Source: Mustelus asterias | Taxonomy: Eukaryota | DNA: 64,000 nucleotides | Direction of reading: 5' to 3' | NCBI RefSeq assembly: GCF_964213995.1 | Contig: NC_135808.1 | Coordinates: 23,436,001-23,500,000 of the forward strand | Shown: positions 50,101-53,831 of the stretch, one piece after another | Position numbering within the stretch: the stretch's first letter is position 1 | Layout: each line of letters begins with the position of its first letter | Notes under the pieces: model-generated | Database searches by the model: none | The model's input: the letters and a program-made list of their open reading frames with translations, nothing else | Told to the model about the DNA's origin: nothing | Program-made: the position numbers and the translations under genes

Positions 50101-51687
50101 GCCGGACAATGAAAATAATCTCGGAAAATTCCGCCCCATTTCTCAATTTGCAGAGGACATCAAATTGTGATGAATTAGTCAATATTGAGGAGAACTGCAA
50201 TACATTAATTGGACATTCATAAACTTTTAGAATGAGCAAATAATTGGTGAATGGAGTTCAGCACAGATAAACGTGAAGGTAGTTTTCTGTTAAAGATGTA
50301 TCGGGAGGTCACTTATTACCTGGAAGGTGCCGGTGTGGATGGAGTTGAGGAACAAAGGGATCTGGGTGTACAAATACACCAATCAGTAACAGGTTAGACA
50401 AGGTCATAAACAAAATAAATGGAAAACCAGGTTTTATTTCTCGAGAGATTGAATTGTAAAGCAGGGATGTTATTGCTAAACCTGTATCAGCCTTCATTAT
50501 AGGACATTTAGCACGTGTGCAGTTCCGGTCACCATTTCATACAAAGGATATAGATTCAGGGGAGAGAGTGCAGAGATGATTTACAAAGATGATTCCAGGA
50601 ATGAGTGGGTGGACATCTCGGTGAAGGATTGACCGGGTCTCCGCACTCAGGAAAACAGAAGGCTGAGGGTTGACCTAGTCGAGGTCTTGAAAATCATAGA
50701 ACCCTACAGTGCAGAAGGAGGCCATTCGGCCCATCGAGTCTGCACCGACCACAATCCCACCCAAGCCCTACCCCCACATATTTACCCGCTAATCCCTCTA
50801 ACCTACGCATCTCAGGGGCAATTTTTAACCTGGCCAATCAACCTAACCCGCACATCTTTGTGGGAGGAAACCGGAGCACCCGGAGGAAACCCACGCAGAC
50901 ACGAGGAGAATGTGCAAACTCCACACAGACAGTGACCCGAGCCGGGAATCGAACCCAGGACCCTGGAGCTGTGAAGCAGCAGTGCTAACCACTGTGCTAC
51001 CGTGCCGCCCAAAATTATGCAAGGTTTTTATAGACTGGAAACAGAAAGAATGTTTGCTCTTGTGGGAAGGACAAACTGGAGGCCATCAATGCAGGATAGT
51101 CACCAAGAAACGCAATGGGAAATTCAGGAGAGATCTCTTTACCAAAGAATGAAGAGAATGTGAAGCTCGCTACTGCAGGGAGTGGCTGAACTGAACAGTA
51201 GATTAAGAGGAAAATAGACAAGCAAAAGAGAAGGGAATAGAGTTAAAATGGTTGAATTAGATGTGGGAAGATGGGAGGAGGCTCAAGTGGAACATAAACA
51301 CCAGCATCAACTGGATGGGTTGATTGGCTGATTTTTATGTCGTATATCCTGTGTTTCCTGATTCTCTCTCTCTCTCTGACTCACTCTCTTTCATTTTGTC
51401 TCTCTCTCTGATTTCTCTCTCTTTCTGATTCTCTCTCTCTCCCTCCCTTCTTGGCCTCTTTCATTCTCTCCCACTTTCACGTTCTCTCTCTCCCTCTCTC
51501 TGATTCTCACTTTTCCCTCTCCCTGATTCACTCAGTCTCTCTGATTCTCTCTCTAACAGAACCAAAGTCTCGCTCCCAGGTTGCTGTTACTGTCGGGATT
51601 GTGGTCGGGGTCCTCGTGCTCATCGCTCTCATCATTGTGGCTGTCGTCATCTACACCAAGAAAGGCAGGAATTTGAAGGGAAAATAG
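29137..51687 (+). CDS. Nonclassical MHC class I heavy chain gene B (5 exons, open frame, short tail by read-through)
   Basis: Exons 29152-29200, 37860-38120, 38485-38757, 44146-44409, 51560-51687 join in frame with no stop; four structural Cys kept; lineage not assignable without phylogeny. Confidence 0.85.
29152..29200 (+). CDS. Gene B exon 1, signal peptide
   Basis: Identical to gene A exon 1; CAG|gtgagt. Confidence 0.9.
29360..29690 (+). repeat. ~45-bp degenerate tandem repeat in intron 1 of gene B
   Basis: gggtgttggtgttttggggttcacaccctgatgtctctctctct units. Confidence 0.8.
32406..32720 (+). mobile_element. HE1-like SINE nested in the integrase
   Basis: SINE head/core directly after the GPY motif. 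Confidence 0.85.
32750..35258 (-). mobile_element. Nested LINE fragments (a CR1 at ~33722-34935 inside an older CR1/L2-group LINE)
   Basis: [36 protein letters not shown]; tail cataagaacataagaa at 33722. Confidence 0.85.
37860..38120 (+). CDS. Gene B exon 2, alpha1 domain
   Basis: ttttcag|, [28 protein letters not shown]...LSQQTG, |gtgagt; 261 nt. Confidence 0.93.
38485..38757 (+). CDS. Gene B exon 3, alpha2 domain
   Basis: ccacag|, [12 protein letters not shown]...[14 protein letters not shown]|gtgagt; 273 nt. Confidence 0.93.
39140..39898. mobile_element. Duplicate (internally deleted) of the nested LTR composite at 42320-43586
   Basis: Near-identical to 42320-42697 plus 43209-43586. Confidence 0.85.
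39820..40430. repeat. Fold-back inverted repeat, ~300-bp arms
   Basis: 40140-40430 is the reverse complement of ~39820-40110 with a few mismatches. Confidence 0.92.
42320..43586. mobile_element. Minus-strand LTR (related to the intron 1 Gypsy LTR) containing a plus-strand solo LTR (~42693-43486)
   Basis: Inner TGTAA...TAACA with TATAAAA near 42940, homologous to 17110-17494; outer part homologous to the 37049 LTR. Confidence 0.7.
44146..44409 (+). CDS. Gene B exon 4, alpha3 domain (intact)
   Basis: [28 protein letters not shown]; 264 nt; ctcag| and G|gtaaga. Confidence 0.95.
44755..45770 (+). repeat. 34-bp minisatellite (acagggccagtgtatcctgggatattacagtatg)
   Basis: Homogeneous tandem array; only degenerate units at 13075-13170 in gene A. 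Confidence 0.95.
45333..45469 (+). mobile_element. Miniature inverted Penelope insertion (46-bp perfect hairpin + 3' tail) with 12-bp TSD
   Basis: TSD ctattacagtat 45321-45332 / 45470-45481; matches the termini of 53773-56867. Confidence 0.9.
45863..47040 (+). mobile_element. 5'-truncated CR1 LINE
   Basis: [26 protein letters not shown], 3' UTR ending ttctatg. Confidence 0.93.
47061..48955 (+). mobile_element. Internally deleted Gypsy element: two short LTRs around an integrase remnant
   Basis: LTRs start tgtgataaccc at 47061 and 48696; purine tract before the 3' LTR; integrase remnants (AGPFMG, APYH..NG, PAEFLMG); SINE piece 47733-47930. Confidence 0.8.
49317..50136. mobile_element. MITE / non-autonomous DNA transposon (PIF-Harbinger-like)
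   Basis: TIRs gggtagaattttac / ggaaaattccgccc, 3-bp duplication CAT; empty site in gene A near 18885. Confidence 0.7.
50692..51010 (-). mobile_element. HE1-like SINE, full length
   Basis: Head gggcggcacggtagcacagtggttagc on the minus strand, tail ttctatgatt. Confidence 0.9.
51560..51687 (+). CDS. Gene B exon 5, TM with read-through tail (…[11 protein letters not shown])
   Basis: taacag|; ancestral donor at 51665 is GC not GT; TAG 51685-51687. Confidence 0.82.
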
Positions 51688-51914
51688 CAGCTCCTCACTG
51701 GGGGGAGGGATTGTGGGAGAGTATTCCAGGTGGGGGTGGCTCAGGCTGTGGGACTCAGGTTGGTGTGGAGGAGGTCACAGAGTGGGTGGGAGAGCCGCAG
51801 GGTTGGGATAGGGAGGGTGAGGGGCTCAAGAAAAAGGGGGAGAGTTTGAGAATTCTGGGTTCTCATGTTGGATGAGGAGTTGAGGGCATCAGTGAGAGTC
51901 CCGGATCCCTGCAG

Positions 51915-53252
51915 GAGTGAGGGGCTCAGGTCAGTGTGGGAGTGGGGGACTCGGGTCAGTGTGGGAGTGGGGGACTCGGGTCAGTGTGGGAGTGGGGGAC
52001 TCGGGTCAGTATGGGAGTGGGGGGCTCGGGTCAGTGTGGGAGTGGAGGACTCGGGTCAGTGTGGGAGTGGGGGACTCGGGTCAGTGTGGGAGTGGGGGAC
52101 TCGGGTCAGTGTGGGAGTGGGGGACTCGGGTCAGTGTGGGAGTGGGGGACTCGGGTCAGTGTGGGAGTGGGGGACTCGGGTCAGTGTGGGAGTGGGGGAC
52201 TCGGGTCAGTGTGGGAGTGGGGGACTCGGGTCAGTGTGGGAGTGGGGGACTCGGGTCAGTGTGGGAGTGGGGGACTCGGGTCAGTGTGGGAGTGGGGGAC
52301 TCGGGTCAGTGTGGGAGTGGGGGACTCGGGTCAGTGTGGGAGTGGGGGTCTCGGGTCAGTGCGGGAGTGAGGGGCTCGGGTCAGTGCGGGAGTGAGGGGC
52401 TCGGGTCAGTGTGGGAGTGGGGGACTCGGGTCAGTGTGGGAGTGGGGGGCTCGGGTCAGTGTGGGAGTGAGGGGCTCAGGTCAGTGTGGGAGTGAGGGGC
52501 TCAGGTCAGTGTGGGAGTGAGGGGCTCAGGTCAGTGTGGGAGTGAGGGACTGGGGTCAGTGTGGGAGTGGGGGACTCGGGTCAGTGTGGGAGTTGGGGAC
52601 TCGGGTCAGTGTGGGAGTTGGGGACTCGGGTCAGTGTGGGAGTGAGGGGCTCAGGTCAGTGTGGGAGTGAGGGACTGGGGTCAGTGTGGGAGTGGAGGAC
52701 TCGGGTCAGTGTGGGAGTGAGGGGGCTCGGGTCAGTGTGGGAGGGGGGACTCGGGTCAGTGTGGGAGGGGGGACTGGGGTCAGTGTGGGAGTGGGGGACT
52801 GGGGTCAGTGTGGGAGTGGGGGACTGGGGTCAGTGTGGGAGTGGGGGACTGGGGTCAGTGTGGGAGTGGGGGACTCGGGTCAGTGTGGGAGTGGGGGACT
52901 CGGGTCAGTGTGGGAGGGGGGACTGGGGTCAGTGTGGGAGTGGGGGACTGGGGTCAGTGTGGGAGTGGGGGGCTCGGGTCAGTGCGGGAGTGGGGGGCTC
53001 GGGTCAGTGTGGGAGTGGGGGGCTCGGGTCAGTGCGGGAGTGGGGGACTGGGGTCAGTGTGGGAGTGGGGGACTCGGGTCAGTGTGGGAGTGGGGGACTC
53101 GGGTCAGTGTGGGAGTGAGGGGCTCGGGTGCGTGTGGGAGTGAGGGGTTTGGGTCAGTGTGGGAGTGAGGGGCTCGGGTCAGTGTGGGAGTGAGGGACTG
53201 GGGTCAGTGTGGGAGTGAGGGGTTTGGGTGAGTGTGGGAGTGAGGGACTCGT
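51915..53252 (+). repeat. 25-bp G-rich minisatellite (gtgggagtgggggactcgggtcagt)
   Basis: About 50 tandem units, three G-tracts per unit. Confidence 0.96.
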
Positions 53253-53831
53253 GTTTGTTGCTCTGATGAATTGTGCTGGTGTTTAGGGGTCTGATGGGTT
53301 TGAGCTCATCAAGCCTCCTTCTCCCCTCTTCCAAATTTTCAATGATGAGCTCACCTTAAATCCACGCTAACTTTCCTTGATTAATCTGTGCCTTTCTAAA
53401 TGAAGGTTTATACTTCATCACATTGGAATTATTAATTCCAATAATTTTCCCACCAAGTAAGTTAAACTAACTGGTGTATAATTACTCAGATTGCCCCTTC
53501 ATCCCTTTTCAATCCATGGTGTAATGCTGTCAGTCCTTTAATCTCCGTTCACTCTCCTGTGACCGGGAAGAATGATTCTGATTATCGGAGCCTCTGCAAT
53601 TCCCTCCTTTGCTCCTTTTAACCTGGTGATTTATCTCCTCTCAAACTTGTAAAATCCCTGAATACATCATCTCTTACAATGTTTATCTGATGCAGTAATT
53701 CACACATTTCCTCCTCAACTGCAATGTCAACATTGCTCCCTGTTTCCCAAACACAGTGGCAATGTATTTATTGTAAGAAGTTTAACAACACCAGGTTAAA
53801 GTCCAACAGGTTTATTTTGTAGCAAAAGCCA

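Follow-up and report, generated by a model that had tools for sequence, protein, structure and literature searches.

Does a shark class I gene that has lost the exons for its cytoplasmic tail still encode a membrane protein, and where would such a message stop? The question is raised by gene B, a nonclassical UBA-lineage class I gene of the major histocompatibility complex (MHC) in G000:C8:23,436,001–23,500,000, a stretch of 64,000 nucleotides (nt) that we call the window. The NCBI proteins identical to gene B carry the label Mustelus asterias. The first-pass annotation proposed that gene B, after losing its cytoplasmic exons 6 and 7, was repaired into a tail-less membrane protein by clustered changes at the exon 5 donor. 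We confirmed the loss and found it also in two sister genes, C1 and C2, which lack the supposed repair. The explanation that we favor, with about even confidence, is that deletion of exons 6–7 founded a short-tailed sublineage through splicing of exon 5 to exon 8, and that gene B later moved its stop codon into an extension of exon 5, a change that would have been tolerated, since the protein would still have ended in a short basic stub.

Deletion of exons 6 and 7

Gene B contains five exons and an open frame of 329 codons with an 11-residue end (letters not shown), at which three of the four NCBI models of the B cluster also end. Its features in the window are as follows.

29137–29200, plus strand: exon 1 (leader), with both ATG and GT donor intact; matches gene A exon 1 at 64/64 positions
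37860–38120, plus strand: exon 2 (alpha1), open; PF00129; hydrophobic, remodelled helix; N-glycan sequon lost
38485–38757, plus strand: exon 3 (alpha2), open
44146–44409, plus strand: exon 4 (alpha3, C1-set), open
51560–51664, plus strand: exon 5 (connecting peptide and transmembrane segment, TM)
51665–51687, plus strand: GC donor (51665–51666) and read-through extension GRNLKGK, with TAG at 51685–51687
51727–51735, plus strand: candidate donor CAG/GTGGGG (GT at 51730), private to B, arising from loss of one G, 42 nt past the stop
51914–53251, plus strand: 25-bp tandem array of intron 5, 53.6 copies
53248–53306, plus strand: 28-bp array remnant between two deletion breakpoints; junction common to C1 and C2
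53773–56867, no strand assigned: B-specific 3.1-kb retroelement-like insertion, which we take to be a candidate Penelope-like element; strong donor at 53865, AATAAA at 56787
57239–57545, plus strand: retained family exon 8, which lies in the 3′ untranslated region (UTR) of the full-length genes; its acceptor precedes 57239, AATAAA is at 57521, and the 3′ end is approximate
62936–63318, plus strand: exon 8 duplicate without AATAAA, also present after C1 and C2

A BLAST search with exons 6 and 7 of gene A (word size 7) gave no match after gene B exon 5, in agreement with the first-pass annotation. The segment equivalent to gene A 20538–21889 is missing, and the 25-bp array (51914–53251) abuts a remnant of the next array at 53248–53306. 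This arrangement had been described correctly, but the period of the second array is 28 and not 27 bp. A second deletion of about 1.2–1.5 kb follows the remnant.

Comparison of the junction among array members, which had been proposed as a check, revealed the identical junction in four B copies and in the diverged sisters C1 (C8:21.89 Mb) and C2 (C8:24.35 Mb). These six loci lie on both strands, the sisters are 92–94% identical, and the array lengths vary among copies, so collapse by the assembler was not borne out. These results indicate that the loss of exons 6–7 is a real genomic deletion. Among the listed contig pieces from sequencing runs, none bridges the junction.

B, C1, and C2 form one clade on alpha1+alpha2 (support 100/100; 23 rows) and are collinear over about 30 kb. 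C1 and C2 keep a GT donor and have no near stop; read-through would add 55 amino acids (aa). Because they share the deletion but keep GT and lack the TAG, the deletion predates the junction changes of gene B. The best explanation of these sequences would be that the common ancestor of the three-member sublineage deleted tail exons 6–7.

The comparator, gene A, is itself a pseudogene, having a frameshift in exon 4 and an AT donor at exon 7. The first-pass annotation used it as the yardstick; its YNPA/SDKGDS tail is typical of the family despite that status. Exon 4 measured 263 nt in all four gene A copies (the others at C8:22.62, 23.03, and 24.65 Mb), and the AT donor was found in both copies read. 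The features concerned are the following.

12275–12537, plus strand: gene A exon 4, 263 nt with a 1-nt deletion; frameshift with stop at codon 278, where NCBI model P0014 also ends
20642–20674, plus strand: gene A exon 6 (YNPA), absent from B
21385–21433, plus strand: gene A exon 7 (Ser-rich, stop), absent from B; donor mutated to AT (21433–21434)

Exon 8 and the end of the message

Exon 7 ends in TGAG/GT, a stop followed by a donor, in 30 of 32 copies, the two exceptions being gene A copies. The acceptor of the 3′-UTR exon 8 is conserved across the family and is kept in gene B at 57239 together with AATAAA at 57521 (a candidate acceptor near 57090 was dropped in favor of this one). Because exon 8 survived with its poly(A) signal and splicing of exon 5 to exon 8 would give a stop, the deletion would have left no stop-less message. 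The predicted exon 5-to-8 join reads VRARQ* in C1 and C2, and the NCBI C2 model ends YNKKVRARQ. Gene B lacks the exon-8 TGA of its sisters and has an open frame of 34 codons there, so that the same join is predicted to give a 34-aa tail (VRARQFNPEV…).

A contig of run X7, from another organism (C) and by our guess RNA, aligns with C1 exon 8 starting at the acceptor; the alignment is gap-free and shows 10 differences over 243 nt. By the record coordinates, about 28 unaligned letters, themselves unread, precede the acceptor; an X9 contig runs across that place. The X7 contig fits a spliced exon 8 and suggests that the C-type stop occurs in another species as well. As for the ancestral tail, the exon-8 duplicates favor the 34-aa frame and the X7 contig favors VRARQ*.

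Changes at the exon 5 donor of gene B

Gene B carries five changes within 51656–51685: A>C at 51656, T>C at 51666, an insertion of 1 nt at about 51672, G>A at 51676, and G>T at 51685. The first-pass annotation had listed three of them (the GC donor at 51665, the insertion, and the G>T that gives TAG at 51685), all of which were found; it missed the other two and the loss of a G at 51728. Read-through gives the 11-residue end that had been predicted, which supports a short-stub product. The insertion, 51656C, and 51676A occur in none of the 36 other exon-5 copies, and these three together with the loss of G 51728 are private to B, which supports the derived state of the junction changes. T at 51685 occurs in 4 of the 36, all with GT donors, and the GC donor in one (orphan g24409m); C1 and C2 carry G at 51685. 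A search for conversion of B intron 5 by the four copies with T showed no tract: 51685 is the only shared site, and C1/C2 remain nearest.

Across an alignment of 17,387 positions, non-coding except for the TM exon, B departs from C1=C2 by 292 substitutions and 22 indels. A density of five events per 30 bp is reached in 0.6% of windows of that size (empirical 0.006; Poisson with a fixed window, 2.5e-4). The clustering that the first-pass annotation stressed is thus a modest excess, but clusters of equal or higher density occur in non-coding B sequence at 49850–50080 and 53540–53562 (unpolarised). The U1 duplex energy is −10.8 for the donor created by the lost G (−8.7 before the loss); the old donor has −9.2 and the GC site −4.7. 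Contigs of runs X1, X3, and X4 on 51470–51912 cover intron and exon alike, and run X13 gave no aligned contig there; the listed pieces carry only family alleles at 51656 and 51666, and one X4 piece equals gene B at 51760–51912 with 0 differences. Neither observation was used, as contigs drop rare variants.

Coding constraint

All six tail-less models are open through exon 5, versus 8 broken among the 26 other models, and each of the four B copies has an undamaged 966-nt frame and undamaged splice sites apart from the exon 5 donor. At neutral (intronic) rates the expected numbers of frame-breaking events are 1.58 for B, 1.27 for C1, and 1.95 for C2, 4.8 in total; joint survival of the frames under neutrality is 0.008 for the three genes and 0.04 for C1 and C2 alone (product). 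The pairwise ratio of nonsynonymous to synonymous rates (dN/dS) is 0.32–0.52 in alpha3+TM and >2 in alpha1 for B versus its sisters, with very few synonymous changes there. Differences in alpha1 within the tail-less clade are almost all nonsynonymous. At 106 near-invariant columns, six changes are common to B, C1, and C2, including the loss of an N-glycan site; 14 of 16 full-tailed genes have 0–3 such changes, and the other two have 8. The alpha1 exon of the tail-less clade (window 37860–38120) encodes a strongly hydrophobic helix end and has lost the N-glycan sequon. These values suggest that the tail-less sublineage is coding. Gene B itself appears ambiguous between coding and decaying, with possible decay changes present.

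Proposed course of events and alternatives

According to the explanation that we favor, exons 6–7 would have been deleted in the common ancestor, and no rescue would have been needed, exon 8 and its poly(A) signal being retained. Exon 5 would then be spliced straight to exon 8, giving YNKKVRARQ* in C1 and C2. In gene B, the insertion and the G>T most likely arose first in the intron, placing TAG in frame; loss of the GT donor would then have been tolerated, since read-through yields an equally short stub. The B message may rejoin exon 8 from the new donor 42 nt past the stop, or may run on as a long 3′ UTR. The B product is predicted to be membrane-bound with a stub without tyrosine and serine trafficking motifs, and would likely show altered recycling; B, C1, and C2 alike are predicted from their sequences to encode membrane-bound products whose tail is reduced to a short stub, which likely changes their persistence at the surface. 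The earlier claim that the changes rescued a clean stop in a new terminal exon was not supported: the deletion is common to C1 and C2, which have GT and no TAG, a stop was already available in exon 8, and neither the T nor the GC allele is confined to B, both being found in copies unrelated to it.

Several points weigh against this explanation. The T at 51685 is recurrent or converted and is not shown to be older than the donor loss, and no copy intermediate between the stop and the donor change was found among the exon-5 copies. The donor cluster is rarer than background, so a purely permissive model does not fully explain it. The U1-pairing score is crude, with true donors scoring as low as −4.5, like the GC site. 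For gene B alone, neutral survival of the frame is 0.21 (not significant), and its branch has 22 nonsynonymous versus 5 synonymous changes on 745:221 sites. B has four private near-invariant changes (Q31R, R45Q, W48R, and Q111R), C1 and C2 two each. No B transcript was seen; no RNA run was listed for B exons 2–3, which is uninformative on expression. The NCBI B models look ab initio and hence give no evidence of expression: their first exon is drawn from window position 36513, inside an intron, and one model swaps the TM exon for sequence at 48456.

The alternative that survives best, which we regard as unlikely overall, is a selected repair in gene B: the GT donor or the exon-8 stop was lost first, and positive selection then fixed the insertion, the G>T, and the new donor, giving a short, decay-resistant product. 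The density of changes at the donor would fit this course, and so would the B-private loss of G 51728, which improves a donor 42 nt past the stop, within the 50–55 nt margin for nonsense-mediated decay. Both branches also end in stubs of ≤10 aa after YxKK, although few single events give that. In exon 8 these are 3/312 substitutions, 1/104 deletions, and 70/416 insertions; in the read-through they are 6/501 substitutions, 2/167 deletions, and 17/668 insertions. The equal or denser clusters elsewhere in non-coding B sequence speak against a repair, however, and both the window and the 10-aa threshold were picked after the fact. A repair moreover requires a harmful intermediate, and the order of events is unreadable from four near-identical copies.

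Slightly less well placed, and in our view doubtful, is that gene B is a decaying copy in which donor loss, insertion, and stop are neutral damage to a gene no longer expressed or folding, while C1 and C2 may be functional. The same GT>GC change occurs in orphan g24409m, which keeps exons 6–7 and has no exon 3 or 4 in 8 kb upstream. W48R and Q111R, private to B, affect residues that we take to be the equivalents of HLA W51 and of the beta2m contact Q115; B shows no synonymous excess and has the 3.1-kb insertion ahead of exon 8. Breakage is common in the array (8 of 32 models), and an independent loss of exons 6–7 occurred in orphan g22523m. What decay leaves unexplained is the intact frame and other splice sites in 4/4 B copies, the retained exon-8 acceptor and AATAAA, and a set of changes that gives a tidy basic stub.

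It is quite improbable that splicing from exon 5 to exon 8 continues at the GC donor, giving gene B a new UTR-derived tail of 34 aa instead of a stub. The required frame is open in B, which lacks the exon-8 TGA, and lamniform UBA models use the homologous frame as a tail; about 15–18% of GT>GC variants keep some normal splicing (PMC8375439). The GC site, however, mismatches the donor consensus at +4 and +6, its U1 duplex is weaker (−4.7, versus −9.2 before the change), and GT donors of greater strength follow at 65 and 94 nt. Collapse of exons 6–7 by the assembler, for which the position of the junction between two tandem arrays might speak, is negligible in view of the recurrence of that junction at six loci.

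A bolder form of the selective explanation, which we consider speculative and improbable, is that class Ib molecules of the HLA-G kind arose more than once in sharks. On this view, tail exons were deleted in a UBA sublineage that has a remodelled hydrophobic groove and lacks the N-glycan, after which selection led its two branches, by different mutations, to similar basic stubs of 9–11 residues. C1 and C2 would have got there by the exon-8 stop, and B by losing its donor and gaining a stop in the intron together with a new donor that is safe from decay. If this were true, the products would be long-lived surface ligands, conceivably at the mother–embryo interface of Mustelus asterias, which is presumably live-bearing.

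Class I array and lineage

The tandem class I array spans about 21.6–24.7 Mb of C8 and holds about 50 genes (51 candidates in a TM-exon search, 40 of them scored); gene models were mapped in 1.05 Mb of its roughly 3.1 Mb. Of the 32 models with exons 2–5, open and full-tailed ones number 18; another 8 are broken, and exons 6–7 are absent from the remaining 6. Gene B has the leader, alpha1, alpha2, C1-set alpha3, TM, and phase-1 exons of an MHC class I heavy chain. Classical class I (UAA) molecules anchor the peptide termini by Y7, Y59, R84, T143, K146, W147, Y159, and Y171; gene B lacks these anchors, seven of the positions being occupied by I, A, I, N, L, L, and S, and the alignment shows no R at position 84.

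Gene B groups with nurse shark AAC60347 at 60% identity (Shimodaira–Hasegawa-like approximate likelihood ratio test 99, 19 rows; the AAC60347 tree was a quick one of 28 rows with midpoint root). AAC60347 is labelled UBA in the supplement of PMC10751288. UBA has been described as a multicopy cluster between c4 and rxrb, and the array is flanked by a gene of the complement C3/C4/C5 type with a thioester domain (21.0 Mb) and an RXR gene (26.07 Mb), an arrangement that may correspond to that description, though the single complement exon examined scored best to C5 and C3 and not to C4. Membership in UEA, described as clustering with UDA between brd2/b2m and extended class II genes, was rejected: the tree groups gene B with UBA, and other class I clusters lie at 31–33.5 Mb. 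Further class I genes or clusters occur on the same contig at 27.97, 31.0–33.6, 35.07, 40.1–43.4, and 3.66 Mb.

A block of A and B occurs four times, at C8:22.58–22.67, 22.99–23.07, 23.41–23.50, and 24.58–24.69 Mb, the first three about 410 kb apart. The best-aligned blocks of the four B copies are 97.5–99.9% identical, mostly >99%, and the blocks are either segmental duplicates of recent origin or haplotypes left partly uncollapsed. Each B copy is followed by the remnant of a divergent class I alpha2 exon that contains two stops (C8:22,717,591; 23,123,786; 23,542,248; and 24,746,037).

The tandem arrays of the class I genes look like deletion hotspots. Orphans g21786m and g23713m were rejected as further clean losses of exons 6–7, as intron-7 sequence is kept. 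C1 and C2 have a second copy of the 25-bp array and deletion junction within intron 4 (L038:3481–3828, with equivalents in L039/L040), absent from B. At C8:24,379,000–24,391,600 (minus strand), a gene has exons 1–4 and 7, with exons 5–6 undetected and exons 2 and 4 damaged, another type of deletion. Partial genes lie at C8:22,941,000–22,945,500, 22,523,800, 21,786,700, 23,713,300, and 24,408,900; one lost exons 4–7 at the 28-bp array, and several are orphan TM exons. In the window, a short inverted segment lies at 40136–40351 inside the 25-bp array of intron 3. Large inserts resembling long terminal repeat retroelements, common to C1 and C2, occupy B introns 1 and 4 (about 29700–37800 and 47000–48900) and supply false exons to NCBI models.

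Comparison with known systems

Gene B shares with UBA its grouping with AAC60347 and probably its place in a multicopy cluster between complement-type and RXR genes. Typical UBA tails are about 30 aa long with a YNP/YSP motif and a Ser run, whereas B, C1, and C2 lack both tail exons, have no N-glycan sequon where alpha1 ends, and are missing several conserved residues. Lamniform and horn shark UBA-like models (P0034, P0036, P0076, P0078, and P0053) likewise pass from the TM exon directly into the exon-8 frame with no YNP motif, and models of Cetorhinus, Carcharodon, and Heterodontus use this homologous frame as the tail. Their tails of 19–26 aa are not stubs, however, and the comparison covers NCBI models only, not the exon 6–7 status of the genomes. 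All lamniform UBA-like models retrieved (P0034, P0036, P0046, P0074, and P0076–P0078) lack the YNP exon-6 motif and have tails of the exon-7 or exon-8 type; in some of them the TM exon is skipped, so that the product would be soluble. Tails of ≤14 aa occurred in 5 of 51 TM-bearing homologues, namely B, C2, and three models that belong to other sharks. The literature searched, which did not extend to most subscription papers or to the UEA and UDA papers, contained no account of shark UBA genes without tails.

HLA-G is likewise a nonclassical class I molecule with a very short tail that lacks the conserved Tyr and Ser motifs, as predicted from DNA for gene B. In HLA-G, exon 6 is retained and an early stop within it shortens the tail, whereas gene B, which is not orthologous, lost its exons by genomic deletion. 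Dilysine retrieval to the endoplasmic reticulum (ER) follows the C-terminal rule KKxx/KxKxx; the gene B stub (NLKGK end) has Lys only at −1 and −3 and no canonical motif, and C1 and C2 end VRARQ. HLA-G is given a tail of six residues (PMC4950430) and described as having an ER-retrieval motif and no endosomal recycling motif (PMC12714902). In mammalian exon-7-skipped variants of class I, loss of the Ser-bearing tail exon goes with slower internalisation (PMC4950430 and PMC3157908). Gene B resembles these variants in the absence of that exon; the variants, however, arise by regulated splicing and retain the tyrosine of exon 6, whereas in B both exons are deleted from the genome. By analogy with mammals, the gene B product would likely show slower internalisation or otherwise altered trafficking.

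The functions of shark nonclassical class I lineages are described as unknown (PMC10751288). A tail-less sublineage with open frames beside full-tailed paralogues, nearly identical in alpha3 and TM, provides a natural comparison for the question whether control of class I trafficking by the tail dates back to the origin of jawed vertebrates. The deletion of exons 6–7 would also illustrate a route to new tails, in which a 3′-UTR exon is recruited. If B alone is decaying, the case would be one of ordinary birth and death in an MHC array.

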